From: Burkholderiales bacterium
Lineage (GTDB): Bacteria; Pseudomonadota; Gammaproteobacteria; Burkholderiales; JACQAP01
DNA length: 64,000 bases
Reading direction: 5' to 3'
Assembly: GCA_035549715.1 (NCBI GenBank)
Contig: DASZQJ010000160.1
Location: 22,688 to 86,687, forward strand
The notes below the pieces were generated by a model. That model made no database searches and had not been told where the DNA came from. It saw only the letters and a list, made by a program, of their open reading frames with translations. Shown piece by piece: positions 3,927 to 53,119 of this stretch (the first letter of the stretch is position 1; every line of letters begins with the position of its first letter). Position numbers and translations under genes: made by a program.

Positions 3927-5348
3927 ATGTATTACGCATTCTTCGGACTGAACCAGCCTCCCTTCAAGATCACGCCCGACACCGAAGCCTTCTTCGAGGG
4001 CGGCAACCGCGGGGCAATCCTCGAGGCGCTGATCTACGCCATCACCCACGGCGAGGGCATCATCAAGGTGACCGGCGAGGTGGGCAGCGGCAAGACCATG
4101 CTGTGCCGGGTCCTGCAAACGCGGCTGCCGCAAAACGTCGAGAACGTCTACCTCGCCAATCCCAGCGTCTCGCCCGAGGAAATCCTCCACGCCATCGCCT
4201 TCGAGCTGCAGATCACCCTGCCCCGGGATGCCAGCCGACTGGAGGTCATGCATGCCCTGAATGCCTACCTGCTCGAGCGCCACGCGCAGAAAAAGCAGGT
4301 CGTGGTCTTCGTCGAGGAATCGCAGGGCATGCCGCTCGCTACCCTGGAGGAAATCCGGCTGCTCTCGAACCTCGAGACGCAGCAGCACAAGCTCCTCCAG
4401 ATCGTCCTGTTCGGCCAGCCCGAACTGGACGAAAACCTGCGCCAGCCGCAAATCCGGCAACTGCGCGAGCGCATCACCCACAGCTTCAACCTGGCGCCCC
4501 TGGATGAGCAGGATGTGAGGGCCTACTTAGCGTTCCGGCTCCGTGCGGCGGGGTATCACGGTCCAGACTTGTTCGGGCCGCGGGTGATTTCCTACATGAC
4601 GCGCGCCAGCGGTGGCTTGTCGCGGCGCATCAATCTGATTGCCGACAAGGCACTGCTGGCGGCCTTCGCCGAGGGCACCCACAACGTCAGCCTGGCGCAC
4701 GTGAAAGCCGCCGTGAGAGACAGCGAGTTCAGCGACGTGCCCATGCAAAAATCCCGTTCACCAATGGCTTACGCCCTGGTCGGACTGGCGATCGGGGGTG
4801 CCCTGGGCATTGCGGCCTTCGCCGCCTATCTCGGCTTTTCCGGGAATCGGCAGGCCGCCCCATCGGCGTCCGAAAGCGCTGCCCCGGCACAGGCCCCCCT
4901 GCCGGCGGCCTCCACGCCCGTCCGGCCGGCCGTGGCATCCGGGCCTCCGGTGGTCCAGGCCGCCGCACCGGCACCCGCGGGTCCGGCCGTTGCCGCCCTG
5001 GAGCTGCCGCCGGACCTGCTGGAACAGCGTTTGCTCGCGACCACGCAGTGGCTCGACCAGCAAAATGCCGGCGCGTACAGCATCCAGCTGCTCGGCTCGC
5101 CCGACGCAGAACTCCTAAGGGAGTATTTCAAAACCATCGCCAAATATCTTGAAATAGAAAAGGTTTATGTGTACCGTACGGTTGCAAATCAGCGTCCTTC
5201 GTTTACGGTTTTATACGGGACTTACGCTGATCGGTACGAGGTGACCCGCGTCCTGGAGAGCCTCCCGCCCGAAATGCGGGTCAACCGGCCTTACACTCGG
5301 ACGATTCAGGGGATACGCGCCGAGATCGCTTATCAGAACCGGTCGTGA
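3927..5348 (+). CDS. ExeA/GspA/MshM-like AAA ATPase with TM segment, Ala/Pro-rich linker and C-terminal SPOR-like domain
   Basis: MYYAFFGLNQPPFKITPD N-terminus and Walker A GEVGSGKT are typical of ExeA/MshM. TM segment AYALVGLAIGGALGIAAFAAYLGF. C-terminus YSIQLLGS...VYVYRTV...FTVLYGTYADRYEV resembles a SPOR/peptidoglycan-binding fold. Confidence 0.8.
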   Translation: MYYAFFGLNQPPFKITPDTEAFFEGGNRGAILEALIYAITHGEGIIKVTGEVGSGKTMLCRVLQTRLPQNVENVYLANPSVSPEEILHAIAFELQITLPRDASRLEVMHALNAYLLERHAQKKQVVVFVEESQGMPLATLEEIRLLSNLETQQHKLLQIVLFGQPELDENLRQPQIRQLRERITHSFNLAPLDEQDVRAYLAFRLRAAGYHGPDLFGPRVISYMTRASGGLSRRINLIADKALLAAFAEGTHNVSLAHVKAAVRDSEFSDVPMQKSRSPMAYALVGLAIGGALGIAAFAAYLGFSGNRQAAPSASESAAPAQAPLPAASTPVRPAVASGPPVVQAAAPAPAGPAVAALELPPDLLEQRLLATTQWLDQQNAGAYSIQLLGSPDAELLREYFKTIAKYLEIEKVYVYRTVANQRPSFTVLYGTYADRYEVTRVLESLPPEMRVNRPYTRTIQGIRAEIAYQNRS

Positions 5349-8687: not shown

Positions 8688-10394
8688 ATGGCCGAGCAAC
8701 GCAAGAAGCTTCGCCTCGGCGAACTGCTGGTCCAGCAGGGGCTGATCACCCACGATCAGCTGCGCATCGCGCTGACCGAGCAGAAATCACAGAACATCCC
8801 GATCGGGCGCCTGCTGGTGCGCCTGGGCTTCGTCACCGAGGCCGTGATCCGCGACATCATGGCGCGGACCATCGGCCAGGAATCCATCGACCTCTCGCAG
8901 GTGCTGGTGGATGCCGAGGCGCTCAAGCTCGTGCCGCAGGAGTTCGCGCGCCGCCACCGCCTCCTGCCGATCGCCTACGACGCCGAGCAGAACATGCTCG
9001 TGGTGGCCATCACGGAAGTCTTCAACGTCGTCGCCCTGGACCAGTTGCGCGCCACCCTCGGCCACAACATCCAGATGAAGACGGTGCTCGCGGGCCAGGC
9101 GCAGCTCGACGAGTACATCGACCAGTTCTACGGCTTCGAGCTTTCCGTCGACGGCATCCTGCGCGAGATCGAAACCGGCGAGATCGACTACCAGAGCATC
9201 CAGCAGGGCGGGGTCGACGAGTACACCCAGCCGATCGTGCGCCTGGTCGGCGCGCTGCTGGTCGACGCGGTCAAGCGCGGCGCCTCTGACATCCACTTCG
9301 AGCCCGAATTCGCCTTCCTGCGCATCCGCTACCGCATCGACGGCGTGCTCGAGCAGATCCGCAGCCTGCACAAGACCTACTGGCCGGGCATCGCCGTGCG
9401 CCTGAAGGTCATCAGCGGCATGAACATCGCCGAGACGCGCGCGCCGCAGGACGGCCGCCTGTCGCTCAACCTGAACGGCCGCCCGGTCGATTTCCGCGTC
9501 GCCTCGCAGCCGACCATCTGGGGCGAGAACATCGTGCTGCGCGTGCTCGACCGCGAGAAGTCCATCATCAGCCTGGAGCAGATGAAGCTGCCCAAGCAGA
9601 CGATGGCCAAGCTCAACCTGATGCTCGCCCGGCCGGAGGGCATCCTCGTGCTGACCGGCCCGACCGGCAGCGGCAAGACGACCACCCTCTACTCGCTGCT
9701 CGCCAAGCTCAACGTCGAGTCGGTCAACATCATGACCCTCGAGGACCCGGTGGAATATCCCGTGGCGATGATGCGCCAGACCTCGGTGAGCGAAGCCGCC
9801 AAGATGGACTTCGCCAACGGCATCCGCTCCATCATGCGCCAGGACCCGGACATCATCCTGGTGGGCGAAGTGCGCGACAAGGACACCGCCGAGATGGCCT
9901 TCCGCGCCGCCATGACCGGCCACCAGGTGTTCACGACCCTGCACACCAACTCCGCGCTCGGCACCTTCCCGCGGCTGCTGGACATCGGCATCGCCCCGGA
10001 CATCATGGCGGGGAACATCATCGGCATCATCGCCCAGCGCCTGGTGCGCATGCTCTGCACGCAGTGCAAGGAGGCCTATTCGCCATCGCTCGAGGAGCGA
10101 CAGCTGCTCGGGCGCGAGGTGGAAGGCGAGCTCAAGATCTTCCGCCCGGTGGGCTGCAACCGCTGCAACCATCGCGGCTACAAGGGCCGCACCGCCGTCA
10201 TGGAGATCCTGCACATGGACGCGGACATGGACGAGCTCGTCGCCCGCCGCGCGAGCCCCAGGGAGCTCAAGGAGCTCGCCATCTCCAGGAATTTCCGCAC
10301 GCTCGCCGACGAAGGCGTGCAGCGCGTCCTCGACGGCTCGACCAGCCTCGCCGAGGTGGCGCGCGCCATCGACCTGACGGGCCGGGCCAGGTAG
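8688..10394 (+). CDS. GspE/PilB/MshE-family secretion ATPase with N-terminal MshEN (T2SSE_N) domain
   Basis: Walker A GPTGSGKTTT, Asp/His boxes, tetracysteine CTQC...CNRC. N-terminus RLGELLVQQGLITHDQLRIALTEQ. Confidence 0.9.
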   Translation: MAEQRKKLRLGELLVQQGLITHDQLRIALTEQKSQNIPIGRLLVRLGFVTEAVIRDIMARTIGQESIDLSQVLVDAEALKLVPQEFARRHRLLPIAYDAEQNMLVVAITEVFNVVALDQLRATLGHNIQMKTVLAGQAQLDEYIDQFYGFELSVDGILREIETGEIDYQSIQQGGVDEYTQPIVRLVGALLVDAVKRGASDIHFEPEFAFLRIRYRIDGVLEQIRSLHKTYWPGIAVRLKVISGMNIAETRAPQDGRLSLNLNGRPVDFRVASQPTIWGENIVLRVLDREKSIISLEQMKLPKQTMAKLNLMLARPEGILVLTGPTGSGKTTTLYSLLAKLNVESVNIMTLEDPVEYPVAMMRQTSVSEAAKMDFANGIRSIMRQDPDIILVGEVRDKDTAEMAFRAAMTGHQVFTTLHTNSALGTFPRLLDIGIAPDIMAGNIIGIIAQRLVRMLCTQCKEAYSPSLEERQLLGREVEGELKIFRPVGCNRCNHRGYKGRTAVMEILHMDADMDELVARRASPRELKELAISRNFRTLADEGVQRVLDGSTSLAEVARAIDLTGRAR

Positions 10395-21795: not shown

Positions 21796-23769
21796 CTATC
21801 CCTGCAGGAGGAACACCTCGGCGTCCGCCAGGTCCGCCTGCTTGCCCCGCAGCACCAGGACGTCGCCCTCGGCAAGCTCGGTCTTCGGGTCGGGGGTCGA
21901 GTTGCGGATGTTGCGCCGGCGCAGCGCCGTCACCTCGACATGCAGCCGGGCGAGGTCGAGCTGCTGCAGCGTGCGCCCCGCCGCCGCCGCCCCCGGCGGC
22001 AGCACCAGCGAATGCATGCGCGGCTGGTCGCGGTCGTTGCCGTCCTCCACCTCGTCCGTCACGCCGCGGAAAAAGCCCTTGAACAGGCCGTAGCGCTGCT
22101 CGCGCGTTTCGCGGATGCGCCGCAGCACGCGGTTGAGCGGCACGCCCAGCAGCATCAGCGCGTGGGTCGCCAGCATCAGGCTGCCTTCGAGGATCTCGGC
22201 CACCACCTCCGCGGCGCCCGCCTCCTTGAGCCGGTCGATGTCGCTGTCGTCGAGGGTGCGCACGATGACCGGCATGCCGGGCCGCAGCTCCTGCACCTGC
22301 GCGAGGATCGCCAGCGCCGACTTCGTGTCCGCGTAGGAGACCACCAGCGCGTTGGCGCGCAGCAGGCCGGCCGCGATCAGCACCTCGCGGCGCGCCGCGT
22401 CGCCGAACACCACGCTTTCGCCCGCCGCGGCCGCCTCCCGCACCCGCTGCGGGTCGATGTCCAGCGCGATGAACTCGATCTTCTCCTGCTCGAGGAAGCG
22501 CGCCAGGTTCTGGCCGCTGCGGCCGAAGCCGCAGATGATCACGTGGCGGTCCGCCGCCATGGTCTGGATGGCGATGTTGTGCAGGGTCATCGCGTGGTTC
22601 ATCCATTCGGCCGCGCTGAAGCGCCGCACGATGCGCTCGCTGTGCTCGATCAGGAAGGGCGCGGCGAGCATCGACAGCACCAGCGCCGCGAGCGCCACCT
22701 GGGTGAGGCCCGCGGGCAGCAGCTCGAGGTGGGAGGCCTCGCTGACCAGCACCAGGCCGAACTCCCCGGCGCCCGCCAGGGCAAGGCCGGCGCGCAGGGC
22801 GACGGACGCCTGCGCGCCGAACAGGCGGCTCAGGCCGAAGATCAGGGCGATCTTGCCCGCGAGCAGGGCCACGAGCAGCAGCCCCACCCATTGCCAGTCG
22901 TGGATCACGACGCTGACGTCCAGGTAGGTGCCGACGGTGATGAAGAACAGGCCCAGCAGCACGTCGCGAAACGGCTTGATGTCCTCCTCCACCTGGTAGC
23001 GGAACTGGGTCTCGGAGATGAGCATGCCGGCGAGGAAGGCGCCCAGCGCGTAGGACAGGCCGGCGATGCCCGTGAGCCAGGCAAGCCCCAGCGTGATCAT
23101 CAGCACGTTGATGACGAACAGCTCGGAGGACTTCTGGCGCGCCACCAGCGTGAACCAGCGCCGCATCACCTTCTGCCCCACCGTCAGGATGAGCAGCAGC
23201 AGCACGCCCGCGCGCAGCAGGGCAAGGAGCAGCTCCTGCGCCACCGAGTCGTCGGCCTGCGCGAAGGCGGGGTAGAGGATCAGGAAGGGCACCACCGCGA
23301 GGTCCTGGAACAGCAGGATGCCGATGATCTGGCGCCCGTGGGCGGAATTGATCTCCAGGCGCTCGGCCAGCATCTTGGCGAGGATCGCGGTGGAGGACAT
23401 GGCCAGGATGCCGCCCAGCACGACCCCGGTGCGCCAGCCGTGGCCGAAGGCCGACGCCGCGGCGATGCAGACCAGCACCGTCGCCAGCACTTGCGCCGCC
23501 CCCAGGCCGAACACCACGCGCCGCATGGTGATCAGCTTGGGCAGGCTGAACTCGAGCCCGATGGTGAACATCAGGAACACGACGCCGAACTCGGCAAGGC
23601 GGCGGATGTCCTCGTTCGCGGGCACCAGTCCGATCGCGTGCGGCCCGATGGCGATGCCGAGCAGCAGGTAGCCCAGCAGCGCGGGCAGCTTGAGCGAGCG
23701 GAACACGACCACCACCAGGACAGCGGCGGCGAGCAGCAGCAGGATGAATTCGAGGATTCCGAAGCTCAT
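21796..23769 (-). CDS. CPA2 monovalent cation:proton antiporter (KefB/KefC/YbaL-like) with TrkA-N and TrkA-C domains
   Basis: ORF 21796..23805(-). MSFGILEFILLLLAAAVLVVVVFRSLKLPALLGYLLLGIAIGPH. Rossmann IICGFGRSGQ. C-terminal RCK-C-like region. ATG 23769 preferred over GTG 23805. Confidence 0.85.
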   Translation of the reverse strand: MSFGILEFILLLLAAAVLVVVVFRSLKLPALLGYLLLGIAIGPHAIGLVPANEDIRRLAEFGVVFLMFTIGLEFSLPKLITMRRVVFGLGAAQVLATVLVCIAAASAFGHGWRTGVVLGGILAMSSTAILAKMLAERLEINSAHGRQIIGILLFQDLAVVPFLILYPAFAQADDSVAQELLLALLRAGVLLLLILTVGQKVMRRWFTLVARQKSSELFVINVLMITLGLAWLTGIAGLSYALGAFLAGMLISETQFRYQVEEDIKPFRDVLLGLFFITVGTYLDVSVVIHDWQWVGLLLVALLAGKIALIFGLSRLFGAQASVALRAGLALAGAGEFGLVLVSEASHLELLPAGLTQVALAALVLSMLAAPFLIEHSERIVRRFSAAEWMNHAMTLHNIAIQTMAADRHVIICGFGRSGQNLARFLEQEKIEFIALDIDPQRVREAAAAGESVVFGDAARREVLIAAGLLRANALVVSYADTKSALAILAQVQELRPGMPVIVRTLDDSDIDRLKEAGAAEVVAEILEGSLMLATHALMLLGVPLNRVLRRIRETREQRYGLFKGFFRGVTDEVEDGNDRDQPRMHSLVLPPGAAAAGRTLQQLDLARLHVEVTALRRRNIRNSTPDPKTELAEGDVLVLRGKQADLADAEVFLLQG

Positions 23770-23832
23770 GGGGCCGGGAACAATCGGGGGCAGGGCCGAG
23801 TCCACTGTAGCACGCCGCCCGGCAGGGGCCGG

Positions 23833-23950
23833 GGACGGAGGACGGAGGACGAAAGACGGCGTGCTGCGTACTGAGTGCTGCGTGCTGCGTGGGCGCAGGT
23901 GCGTCGGGGCCTGGGGTCCTTACTCAGCACTCAGCACGCAGCACGCAGTA
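23833..23950. repeat. Inverted arrays of degenerate heptamer tandem repeats (long hairpin potential), locus A
   Basis: GGACGGA GGACGGA GGACGAA AGACGGC then GTGCTGC GTACTGA GTGCTGC GTGCTGC GTG (23833-23891). Partner tactcagcactcagcacgcagcacgcagta (23921-23950). 23869-23891 pairs with 23928-23950 at 21 of 23 positions. 36-nt loop. Confidence 0.85.
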
Positions 23951-24043
23951 CCCAGCATGCTTTCCCCGGCACGCCTTTCCCGGTTCCCGGTACGCCGCAC
24001 GGCGTCCTGAACCCCTGCCCTTGTGGCGGTATACTCGTCCGAC

Positions 24044-25051
24044 ATGACCGCGACGAACAGGAACGCCGCCCCGCAGGCCCTCGAGCCCGCGCAGCTCATC
24101 GAGTCCGCCCGGCGCGTGCTCGACATCGAGGCCAGCGCCGTGGCGCAGTTGCGCGAGCGCATCGACGGCAACTTCGTGCGCGCCGTGCAGATCATCCTCG
24201 CCTGCGAGGGGCGCGTGGTCGTGAGCGGCATGGGAAAATCCGGCCACGTCGCGCGCAAGATCGCCGCGACCATGGCAAGCACGGGCACGCCGGCGTTCTT
24301 CGTGCACCCTGGGGAAGCGAGCCACGGCGACCTGGGCATGATCGCCGCCGGCGACGTGGTGATCGCGCTGTCCAATTCGGGCGAAAGCGAGGAACTGCTC
24401 GTCATCGTGCCGCTCATCAAGCGCCAGGGCGCGCGCCTGATCGCCATCACCGGCAATCCCCGGTCGCGCCTCGCGAGCCTCGCCGACGCGCACCTCGATG
24501 CCGCCGTCGCCCAGGAGGCCTGCTCGCTGGGGCTGGCCCCGACCGCCAGCACCACCGCGGCCCTCGCCCTGGGCGACGCGCTCGCGGTGACGCTGCTGGA
24601 GGCGCGCGGCTTCGGGCCCGAGGACTTCGCGCGCTCGCACCCGGGCGGCAGCCTGGGCCGGCGCCTGCTCACCCACGTCGAGGACGTGATGCGCACCGGC
24701 GAGGCCGTGCCGCGGGTGCCGGAGGGCGCCACCTTCGCCGAGGCCCTGCTGGAGATCTCGCGCAAGGGCATGGGCATGACGGCCGTGCTCGACGCCGGCG
24801 GCCGCGTGGCGGGCATCTTCACCGATGGCGACCTGCGCCGCCTGCTGGAGAAGCAGGCAGACCTGCGCCAGCTCGCGATCCGCGACGTCATGCACCGCAA
24901 TCCGCGCTCCGTGGCCCCGAAGCAGCTCGCCGCCGAGGCCGCCAGCCTCATGGAGCAGCACCGCATCAGCCAGCTCCTGGTGGTGGACGGCGACGGACGC
25001 CTGGTGGGCGCCCTCAACACCCACGACCTCATGCAGGCGAAGGTCATCTGA
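24044..25051 (+). CDS. kdsD: Arabinose-5-phosphate isomerase (SIS + tandem CBS), KdsD/KpsF family
   Basis: ORF 24023..25051. SIS motif VVVSGMGKSGHVARKIAATMASTGTPAFFVHPGEASHGDLG, CBS pair at the C-terminus. Followed by kdsC-lptCAB. Confidence 0.9.
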   Translation: MTATNRNAAPQALEPAQLIESARRVLDIEASAVAQLRERIDGNFVRAVQIILACEGRVVVSGMGKSGHVARKIAATMASTGTPAFFVHPGEASHGDLGMIAAGDVVIALSNSGESEELLVIVPLIKRQGARLIAITGNPRSRLASLADAHLDAAVAQEACSLGLAPTASTTAALALGDALAVTLLEARGFGPEDFARSHPGGSLGRRLLTHVEDVMRTGEAVPRVPEGATFAEALLEISRKGMGMTAVLDAGGRVAGIFTDGDLRRLLEKQADLRQLAIRDVMHRNPRSVAPKQLAAEAASLMEQHRISQLLVVDGDGRLVGALNTHDLMQAKVI

Positions 25052-33486: not shown

Positions 33487-33632
33487 CACCACAGAGGCAC
33501 AGAGGACACAGGGAAAGCAGGAAAAACTCGGCTTGACGATTGCAGGCGTTGGCCCGGAACGTAACGGCATGCCCCTCGTATCCCTACACTCCTGATCCGC
33601 CTTTCCTCTGTGTCCTCTGTGCCTCTGTGGTG
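33487..33632. repeat. Inverted repeat built from CACAGAGG-type short tandem units, locus B
   Basis: caccacagaggcacagaggacacag (33487-33511) is the perfect reverse complement of ctgtgtcctctgtgcctctgtggtg (33608-33632), 25/25. It extends by GGAAAG/CTTTCC with a 1-nt bulge. About 85-96 nt central region. Confidence 0.9.
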
Positions 33633-45477: not shown

Positions 45478-45681
45478 GTGATCGTCCTCACCATCAACGG
45501 CCAGCCGCGCAGCTTCCCCGGCCCGCTCAGGGTGGGCGCGCTCATCGGCGAGCTGGGCTTCGCGGGCAAGCGCATCGCGCTGGAGCGCAACGGCGAGATC
45601 GTCCCGCGCAGCCAGTTCGAAGCGACGGAACTCGCCGACGGCGACGCCCTCGAAATCGTGGTGGCCGTCGGCGGCGGCTGA
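45478..45681 (+). CDS. thiS: Sulfur carrier protein ThiS
   Basis: 67 aa ending VVAVGGG. GTG start. Followed by thiG. Confidence 0.9.
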   Translation: MIVLTINGQPRSFPGPLRVGALIGELGFAGKRIALERNGEIVPRSQFEATELADGDALEIVVAVGGG

Positions 45682-45686
45682 GCCGC

Positions 45687-45719
45687 CACCCGCCACTCGT
45701 CACCCGCCACTCGTCACTA
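45687..45719. repeat. Tandem 14-nt (2 x heptamer) repeat in the thiS-thiG spacer, locus D
   Basis: CACCCGCCACTCGT CACCCGCCACTCGT CACTA. Heptamer phase CACCCGC/CACTCGT. No inverted partner found nearby. Confidence 0.85.
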
Positions 45720-51096: not shown

Positions 51097-51256
51097 AACC
51101 GCAAAGGCGCAAGGAAATGCACGAAGGATCGTCGCGCCCGGAGGCAGTGGACGTCCGCTGGCCGACGACTTGCCGCAACCACCACGGTGCAAAGCGCCGT
51201 ATTGCCCGGCCTCGTTTTCCTTTGCGTTACCTTCGCGTCTTTGCGCCTTTGCGGTT
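51097..51256. repeat. Inverted arrays of CTTTGCG(N) short tandem units between rph and rdgB, locus E
   Basis: aaccgcaaaggcgcaagg (51097-51114) versus reverse complement of ctttgcgcctttgcggtt (51239-51256): 17 of 18 identical. The right side carries further copies (cctttgcgttaccttcgcgtctttgcgcctttgcgg). 124-nt centre. Confidence 0.8.
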
Positions 51257-52988: not shown

Positions 52989-53110
52989 CCGTGAGGCGAC
53001 AGGCGTGAGGCGAGAGGCGTGACGAGCAATATCCCCGCAGGCGCGCCGCGCCTGGCGCCAGGCCGGGTTGCATTTCTTCGCCTCACGCCTCACGCCTCAC
53101 GCCTCACGCC
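52989..53110. repeat. Inverted arrays of GCGTGAG/CGCCTCA heptamer tandem repeats between yicC and gmk, locus C
   Basis: Left ccgtgag gcgacag gcgtgag gcgagag gcgtgac (52989-53024). Right cgcctca x4 + cgcc (53079-53110). About 26-27 of 30-31 aligned positions are complementary. 54-nt GC-rich centre. Confidence 0.85.
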
Positions 53111-53119
53111 TGGATTGCC

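Follow-up and report, generated by a model that had tools for sequence, protein, structure and literature searches.

A young, unstable heptanucleotide repeat and its inverted copy in the kefB-kdsD spacer of an uncultured Burkholderiales bacterium

What kind of element occupies the spacer between a kefB-like gene and kdsD in the metagenome-assembled genome (MAG; NCBI TPA) of an uncultured Burkholderiales bacterium from soil or water, how did it arise, and does it have a function? The two genes are divergent, and the 274 nt between them house a tract of back-to-back heptamers that faces its own inverted copy (locus A, positions 23833-23957 of the window, by which we mean the whole 64-kb stretch of DNA that was analysed). 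We argue that locus A is probably a compound heptanucleotide microsatellite that is specific to its lineage, evolves fast by slippage, forms an imperfect palindrome and lies in dispensable DNA between the core promoters of the kefB-like gene and kdsD. We also find it rather likely that it belongs with the long simple sequence repeats (SSRs) of 7-9-nt units found in some proteobacterial and cyanobacterial genomes, in the configuration called a 'convergent pair'. Most likely it has no dedicated role.

The array units that a first-pass annotation of this DNA had read at 23833-23950 are exactly as described, and Tandem Repeats Finder (TRF) agrees with them (Table 1). With 3.9, 4.7 and 4.7 copies of 7-nt units, locus A consists, like long SSRs, of head-to-tail units of 5-11 nt repeated beyond chance. 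The complementarity of 23869-23891 and 23928-23950 at 21 of 23 positions is confirmed by direct reading, and the best pairing register joins 23862-23891 to 23928-23957 (27/30 complementary, 36 nt between the arms). The 36-nt spacer of the annotation is thus right as the distance between the best-pairing arms, but the inverted array already begins at 23921 and the non-repeat spacer is 29 nt. The degenerate tract to the right of the arms pairs weakly with the outer GGACGGA array (63-nt arms, 71% complementary). The claim that the repeat is structured and non-random holds: the window contains three inverted repeats in which 25 or more bases match, against none in 30 dinucleotide shuffles of it (shuffle maximum 23). 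Folding each strand, as the annotation had proposed, gives stable structures for the RNA of the plus strand (-68.8 kcal/mol, z -5.4) and of the minus strand (-57.7, z -4.4), and the DNA of the whole element folds as well (-50.2, z -4.5), so that a stem of about 30 bp can form on either strand.

The comparison with related genomes shows that locus A is young and unstable and limited to this species and its closest sister. A contig of the same species, whose KdsD is identical to that of the window (L081, JGI sample 3300049571), differs over about 340 aligned nt by a single nucleotide polymorphism, one additional GGACGGA unit (+7 nt) and two additional GTGCTGC units (+14 nt), which is the variation in unit number between strains that had been anticipated. 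All the extra units are on the left side, the right arm being unchanged. A third sample has a 295-nt kefB-kdsD spacer, as in L081. In the sister species (L164, KdsD 91%), an element is present at the same site, with units of the family GTGCTG[C/A/G], about 10 units on the left against 5 on the right, and arms that are complementary at 32 of 35 positions; it contains neither the GGACGGA nor the TTCCCGG tract, and its loop differs from that of the window, whose sequence is not kept, even if the GGGGCCT GGGGTCC stretch of the latter is similar to GTCCTGG units of L164. On the contrary, the spacer is 101 nt long and lacks the element in relatives at 87% (L491) and 82% (L166 and L167), which keep both -10 boxes, and the element is also absent from the spacers of about 60-170 nt of more distant relatives. 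Since the 91% sister has the element while the site is empty at 87%, locus A arose after the 87% lineage split. Since then it has changed mainly by gain and loss of whole units, one arm at a time.

The mechanism that we propose is as follows. Replication slippage, which we invoke because it is the standard explanation of whole-unit changes, would add or remove 7-nt units one arm at a time. Arms made of complementary tandem units would pair in any register after such a gain or loss, so that the hairpin would outlast the instability of its arms. The inverted arm would have arisen, and would at times be re-matched, by intrastrand template switching, which is an established mechanism of quasipalindrome correction. 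Locus A would have no sequence-specific function and its effects would be structural: it would change the distance from promoter to promoter in 7-nt steps and place a strong hairpin into any read-through transcript.

The annotation's statement that the element fills much of the divergent promoter region is correct as regards its length, but the repeat tract lies between two putative -10 boxes, not on them (Table 1). That these conserved boxes are -10 elements is something we infer, because a consensus promoter and terminator scan of 23700-24100 finds no promoter-like or terminator-like site. Given its place between the boxes, locus A is probably upstream of both putative transcription starts. 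In the same spacer of a Sulfuricella MAG (L010, about 9880-9930), a short run of GGCAATA-type heptamers, GGCAACG GGCAATA GGCAATA GGCCATG, stands directly upstream of the kefB-like start codon, without inverted copy.

Table 1. Features of locus A, its flanking genes, the other repeat loci of the window and the yicC-gmk spacers of relatives (positions are those of the window unless a contig is named; TRF, Tandem Repeats Finder).
Feature	Position	Strand	Basis and remarks
Locus A, outer purine-rich array, GGACGGA-type x3.9	23833-23860		TRF (call span 23833-23859); without complementary partner
Locus A, left (5') arm, GCGTGCT / GTGCTGC array x4.7 with GTACTGA variant	23859-23891		TRF, inverted-repeat scans
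Locus A, loop, 29 nt	23892-23920		Sequence, folds; small GCGCA/TGCGT hairpin and decayed heptamers GGGGCCT GGGGTCC
Locus A, right (3') arm, TACTCAG CACTCAG CACGCAG CACGCAG TACCCAG	23921-23957		TRF: CAGCACG x4.7 at 23925-23957
Locus A, degenerate pyrimidine-rich tract in 7-nt phase	23958-23999		TRF: TTCCCGG x2.1 at 23977-23991; absent in L164
kefB-like gene, Na_H_Exchanger and TrkA_N/C	start codon 23769	-	Domains
kdsD, SIS and CBS	start codon 24044	+	Domains
Putative extended -10 box of kefB-like gene, TGcTACAGT, left of locus A	23805-23813	-	Conserved in L001, L003, L007, L166, L491, L164 (mostly without element)
Putative -10 box of kdsD, TATACT, right of locus A	24031-24036	+	Conserved in every aligned relative
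Locus B, K-family pair, 3 x CACAGAGG(A) per side	33487-33511 / 33608-33632		Inverted-repeat scan; 25/25 complementary
Locus C, direct array CCGCCAC/TCGTCAC, 14-mer x2.2, between thiS and thiG	45683-45717		TRF
Locus D, Q-family pair, termini AACCGCAAAGG...CCTTTGCGGTT, rph-rdgB spacer	51097-51115 / 51238-51256	-	Inverted-repeat scan; 18/19 complementary
Locus E, CGTGAGG-type x5 facing CGCCTCA x4.7, yicC-gmk spacer	52989-53111; arms 52990-53019 / 53079-53108	+	TRF, inverted-repeat scan; 27/30 complementary
yicC-gmk spacer of L169 (Gmk 82%), 19 nt	L169 2982-3000		CCGCGCGGCACGAGGCGTC, includes exact unit GAGGCGT in apparent gmk Shine-Dalgarno region
yicC-gmk spacer of L170 (Gmk 86%), 73 nt	L170 490-562		5-6 [TC]GCGAGG-type units, 13-nt loop, single CCTCGCG, right flank CCTGGATTGCC as in window
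yicC-gmk spacer of window, 131 nt	52989-53119		Five purine units and 4.7 perfect CGCCTCA units
yicC-gmk spacer of sister species (Gmk 90%), 145 nt			Length only

Is this design new? The annotation had not recognised it, but convergent pairs of the heptamer GGGAATC have already been described in Xanthomonas (Rehm et al. 2015, PMC4692102), so that it cannot be called unrecognised, and these pairs are the closest described case. There are about 185 GGGAATC arrays per genome, of which 70-75 convergent inverted pairs are made; the arrays are intergenic, typically of about 4 units, differ in length between related genomes and can form stem-loops, and they are mostly transcribed, their function being unknown (PMC4692102). 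As in locus A, arrays of the same heptamer lie close together on opposite strands and converge (27/30 between the arms here), and the Xanthomonas pairs are always convergent, with the G- or purine-rich array first, like the biased pairs discussed below. The differences are that Xanthomonas uses one dominant unit genome-wide, which is capable of forming a G-quadruplex (G4), whereas the four paired loci in our 64 kb have four different units, none of them G4-capable; that the units of locus A are GGACGGA and GTGCTGC, rather than the G-rich GGGAATC or GGGNATC; and that locus A, found in an uncultured Burkholderiales bacterium, is compound, with two types of array on its left side and, on its right, a degenerate pyrimidine tract.

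Long SSRs with units of 5-11 nt, among which heptanucleotides are abundant in Burkholderia, Xanthomonas and cyanobacteria, were surveyed by Mrazek et al. (2007), as summarised in PMC4679880; according to this summary, polymerase slippage has been proposed to explain them, and the footprint of the polymerase to explain period 7. Like the loci of the window, long SSRs as summarised there are intergenic and predominantly heptanucleotide. Slippage was proposed in their case, while unit-number polymorphism is directly observed here at locus A (+7 and +14 nt in L081) and is also consistent with the lengths found at locus E (131 nt in the window against 145 nt in the sister species). The concept, in its summarised form, comes without the inverted-pair architecture, the polarity rule and the families with conserved termini that we describe here.

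The annotation's closest analogy was the short tandemly repeated repetitive (STRR) sequences, a fair comparison, but the Xanthomonas pairs are closer. STRR heptamers of cyanobacterial genomes are CCCCAGT, TTGGTCA and CAACAGT; the units of locus A are different and its host is a Burkholderiales MAG. Cyanobacterial STRR and the TAACTGA repeats of Beggiatoaceae are likewise short intergenic tandem heptamers, often located directly at gene ends, and the genomes that bear them contain many different heptamers (PMC4679880). They are nevertheless more distant analogues, as they come from other phyla, have other units and form mostly direct arrays: MacGregor reports one inverted case in 170 repeat sets (PMC4679880) and Rehm few inverted pairs in Nostoc (PMC4692102).

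As to the established classes of palindromic repeats, the annotation was right to set them aside. The window elements resemble repetitive extragenic palindromes (REP), bacterial interspersed mosaic elements (BIME) and REPINs in that they are extragenic, form hairpins and occur as spaced inverted pairs, within operons or between convergent genes. A REP unit is a 20-40-nt imperfect palindrome that exists in hundreds of copies, follows a consensus common to the species and comes with a cognate transposase, RAYT (REP-associated tyrosine transposase). On the contrary, the arms are here tandem 7-9-mers, heptamers in the case of locus A, and not single palindromic units; no sequence is common to two loci of the window, and neither the window nor 2.3 Mb of related loci contain a second copy of the arms or the loop of locus A. 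CRISPR loci have direct repeats of 23-50 nt separated by unique spacers of similar length, whereas the 7-nt units of locus A are contiguous and spacerless. An intrinsic terminator was also considered and rejected: the scan of 23700-24100 shows no terminator-like site and the right arm is not followed by a T run. Locus A differs from the described repeats in its locus-specific units, which are not G4-capable, in its compound form, in its host and in the direct evidence of its age and dynamics.

The annotation had grouped locus A with four other loci of the same design but unrelated units. The inverted design is confirmed for three of these, at 33487 (locus B), 51097 (locus D) and 52990 (locus E), but the repeat at 45687 (locus C) is direct only, since no inverted partner that matches at 14 or more of 18 positions is found within 600 nt. 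The units are unrelated only in part, since those of loci B and D (CACAGAGG and CGCAAAGG) are alike, as are their termini (CACCACAGAGG and AACCGCAAAGG), and belong to families dispersed in other genera. All four paired elements fold into long stems on either strand, the RNA folds of loci B and E reaching -79.4 kcal/mol (z -9.4) and -81.2 kcal/mol (z -7.2), respectively. The 64-kb window holds 4 such paired elements, and the other proteobacterial loci that were scanned (2.34 Mb) hold about 24. Locus B is flanked by two convergent genes, which encode a LON-domain protein and MutY and whose ends are 0-25 nt apart in relatives, and locus D fills an rph-rdgB spacer of 167 nt, which is empty and 13 nt long in L169. 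At loci D and E, 1-5 nt separate the base of the stem from the stop codon upstream of it, and 2-11 nt from the start codon that follows.

Some of these arrays touch the neighbouring reading frames. In the MutY-like open reading frame (ORF), the right arm of locus B (33584-33632, minus strand) supplies the last 15 codons or so (TTEAQRTQRKGGSGV), and homologues end about where the repeat starts. For the 469-aa protein that adjoins locus B, no other encoding contig is on record. At 45633-45717, the Gly-Gly codons and the stop codon of the ORF annotated as thiS (GGCGGCGGCTGA) are directly followed by the CCGCCAC array of locus C, which is pyrimidine-rich on the sense strand and partnerless; a short GGCGGC/GCCGCC hairpin at the junction spans the stop codon.

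The yicC-gmk spacer offers a view of how such an element may form (Table 1). The graded lengths of this spacer among relatives support the idea that locus E grew in place, with the purine array first. The unit GAGGCGT that is found in the shortest spacer, that of L169, is at most suggestive of a local seed (P about 0.025). In the window, no clear Shine-Dalgarno sequence is left beside the ATG of gmk.

To place these loci in a wider frame, we surveyed 172 sequences (2.34 Mb), consisting of the window and of genome and metagenome loci around kdsD and gmk. If periods divisible by three are set aside, period 7 is by far the commonest, with 81 arrays against 19, 11 and 10 for periods 8, 10 and 11 (163 sequences). 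Other units show the inverted design in Beta- and Gammaproteobacteria that are unrelated, for example GGAGACG (Hydrocarboniphaga effusa), CACGAAAAG (Deefgea rivuli), GGGCTGA, GGGAACG and AGAGGCT. In the whole set, 17 pairs of inverted 7-9-nt arrays have the purine-rich array first, none has the pyrimidine-rich array first and 13 are neutral. This property is identical on both strands of an inverted repeat and therefore does not depend on gene orientation. Non-periodic inverted repeats do not follow such a rule (10 purine-first, 6 pyrimidine-first and 33 neutral). The polarity agrees with the 'convergent' orientation of the Xanthomonas pairs (PMC4692102), and in the CACAGAG family of viral contigs it is found in 21 of the 21 inverted pairs among the matches listed.

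Two families with conserved termini emerge from this survey. Elements of the K family (CACAGAG-type), that of locus B, have the termini CCACAGAG...CTCTGTGG around three 9-nt units per side; one of them (L010 18651-18770) is nested inside an element of the Q family of Sulfuricella, and further members are found in L128 (4271-4423) and L119. The pattern CACAGAGNNCACAGAGNNCACAG is present in at least 120 contigs of IMG/VR (L172-L291), some of which have 6-7 copies, and these viral contigs are extremely rich in 7-9-nt arrays. Among the matches listed, (CACAGAGNN)x3 almost always consists of three 9-nt units, preceded by a flank of 4-5 nt that is specific to the contig and often holds the upstream stop codon, and about 14% of the arrays of the CACAGAGNNCACAGAGNNCACAG contigs have an inverted partner. 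The termini of the Q family, that of locus D (AACCGCAAAGG[CT]GCRAAG...CCTTTGCGGTT), recur at a non-homologous site of the Sulfuricella MAG (L010 18580-18840) and in 11 viral contigs (L292-L302); 3 of these 12 arrays have an inverted partner. The units of loci A and E are another matter: with permuted units giving 28 and 36 contigs of IMG/VR, the locus A unit GTGCTGN is found in 73 contigs, a mild enrichment (about 2.6 times its control of 28), while the locus E unit GAGGCGN (37 contigs) and GGACGGA (14 contigs) are at control level. The idea that the units of loci A and E define special families was rejected on the basis of these permuted controls.

Other searches were less productive. Literature searches for the repeat strings returned primer matches alone and no paper describing the K or Q strings, and a search for bacterial transposable elements of the miniature inverted-repeat type (MITEs) with tandem sub-repeats returned nothing relevant; a paper on intrastrand triplexes concerns another motif. 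A tblastn comparison of a ParB-like protein with phages gave no clue to the host of the K-rich viral contigs. A search for the terminal motifs with two mismatches was dominated by noise, both orders being equally frequent, and was discarded, as was a candidate in L005, an ordinary small terminator hairpin. The K-type element found upstream of kdsD in L128 has in its loop (4300-4395) a second, unrelated inverted repeat (CGTCATTCCGG...CCGGAATGACG), so that repeats are here nested within repeats.

These results leave room for a broader, tentative proposal, which we find possible but do not favour: the inverted 7-9-nt arrays of Proteobacteria and phages would obey a strict, strand-symmetric purine-first polarity and the K and Q elements would form dispersed families with conserved termini and a fixed number of units, and they would be not neutral microsatellites but the result of a constraint or of a generating mechanism. 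A candidate constraint would be the co-transcriptional masking of C-rich arrays from Rho: if the purine arm comes first, the C-rich arm would find its partner at the moment of its synthesis, no matter which of the two strands is transcribed. Alternatively, both the polarity and the families might come from a bacterial mobile element of the foldback type. Both the purine-first polarity and the dispersal of the K and Q families in other genera may be new.

Several observations do not sit easily with a slippage-driven microsatellite devoid of function. As regards its origin, the spacers of empty sites share no significant seed with the arrays of locus A, so that a pre-formed element may have been inserted there. 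Loci B and D, which have the same design, belong to families whose termini are conserved in other genera and whose members are sometimes nested, which suggests mobility or a selected motif more than local slippage. The purine-first polarity is not predicted by neutral slippage combined with template switching, and points to a constraint or a generating mechanism. The same unit variants have been kept in both arms across speciation, which could mean that pairing is selected, hence a function. Finally, that locus A is not transcribed and that it has no function are themselves conclusions that we infer.

The insertion of a pre-formed element is the most serious of the alternatives, even if we consider it unlikely for locus A. 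It would be a non-autonomous mobile element, akin to foldback (FB) transposons or MITEs, whose terminal inverted repeats consist of tandem sub-repeats; it would have been inserted between the two promoters in the common ancestor with the sister species, and then modified by slippage. FB elements are eukaryotic. The window elements resemble FB transposons and MITEs in having long inverted termini of variable tandem sub-repeats, which locus A also has, around a variable non-coding middle, and the nesting of K in Q in L010 and the conservation of the K and Q termini across genera add to the likeness. The clean empty sites at 87% and 82% are what an insertion would leave, loci B, D and E look like insertions of 130-170 nt into spacers of 0-25 nt, the termini of B and D (about 20-30 nt) are found at non-homologous sites in Sulfuricella L010, L128, L119 and IMG/VR contigs, and arrays of GTGCTG[A/C] with an inverted partner in the same orientation exist in unrelated contigs such as L348. 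However, the comparison of filled and empty sites reveals no target-site duplication at A, B, D or E, no transposase candidate has been identified, and a blastn search of locus D against the plasmids of PLSDB gives only chance matches in coding DNA. The absence of further copies of the arms or loop of locus A from the window and from the 2.3 Mb of related loci, the unrelated loops of family members, the mild or null enrichment of GTGCTGN and GAGGCGN over their controls and the graded series at a single site, locus E, also speak against mobility. The microsatellite is our preferred reading of locus A.

Could the hairpin function as RNA? In transcripts that cross the spacer, it might provide a site for RNase III, stabilise the transcript, act as an attenuator or draw a stop codon close to the next start codon. 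The folds are very stable, at locus A the plus-strand RNA is more stable than the minus-strand RNA by 11 kcal/mol, at loci D and E the base of the stem is near the stop and next start codons inside operons, and most of the Xanthomonas repeats are transcribed (PMC4692102). We nevertheless hold this to be improbable for locus A, which lies upstream of both putative transcription start sites, in a region where no promoter-like or terminator-like site is called. At the gathering score, no Rfam family matches it, and a relaxed search returns solely generic models of microRNA precursor hairpins, at 21-30 bits against cut-offs of 90-168. Neither the loop sequence nor the length of the arms is conserved even in the sister species, and close relatives do without the element.

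A contingency (phase-variable) function, in which the number of units or the extrusion of a cruciform would tune the kefB-like gene, the kdsD-kdsC-lptCAB operon or both, is in our opinion very unlikely. It is true that the number of units varies between near-identical strains, that the element is flanked by divergent promoters, an arrangement in which negative supercoiling builds up (twin-domain model), and that the 5' end of the GGACGGA array is about where the -35 element of the kefB-like gene would be. But the promoter of this gene looks to be of the extended -10 type, for which a -35 element is dispensable, and the arrays are outside each segment from the -10 box to the presumed -35, so that changes in unit number leave the spacing of the core promoters intact. 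Moreover, the -10 boxes persist in relatives at 87% and 82% where the element is lacking, a loop of 29-36 nt disfavours the extrusion of a cruciform, and the flanking genes are housekeeping genes, not surface or contingency genes. As for a G-quadruplex or i-motif, as proposed for the G-rich heptamers of Xanthomonas and Nostoc, the regularly spaced GG runs of the outer GGACGGA array and the study of the closest described analogue as a G4 former make too slight a case, and we reject it as hardly credible because the G runs are lacking: there are no regularly spaced runs of three or more G but just four scattered runs of 3-4 G in the flank and the loop, the main arms (GTGCTGC) are not G-rich, and the units of the other loci have no G runs.

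Taken alone, locus A is of little consequence, being a dispensable repeat that evolves fast and that an uncultured bacterium carries in a promoter spacer. The series of yicC-gmk spacers (19, 73 and 131-145 nt) is of more interest, being a rare stepwise view of the birth of a long palindromic repeat in a bacterial operon. If the polarity rule holds genome-wide, it would be a simple regularity that could expose a selective constraint on intergenic RNA, such as the avoidance of Rho, or a mutational mechanism; it is this rule, together with the K and Q families, that most deserves to be followed up. In practical terms, such arrays add hairpins of great stability (-79 and -81 kcal/mol) to the spacers in two essential operons, they alter gene ends, as in the MutY of the window with its repeat-encoded tail, and they can break metagenome assemblies.

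Last, we note two observations on the sequences themselves. In the window, whose G+C content is about 68%, the segment 14001-16000 has a G+C fraction of 0.55, against about 0.68 elsewhere, and may have been acquired recently. Many contigs of the window species are just 1-3 kb long, and a Logan contig (L162, 1-38) begins inside the CGCCTCA array of locus E, 38 nt upstream of gmk; it is probably at arrays of this kind that assemblies of short reads break.

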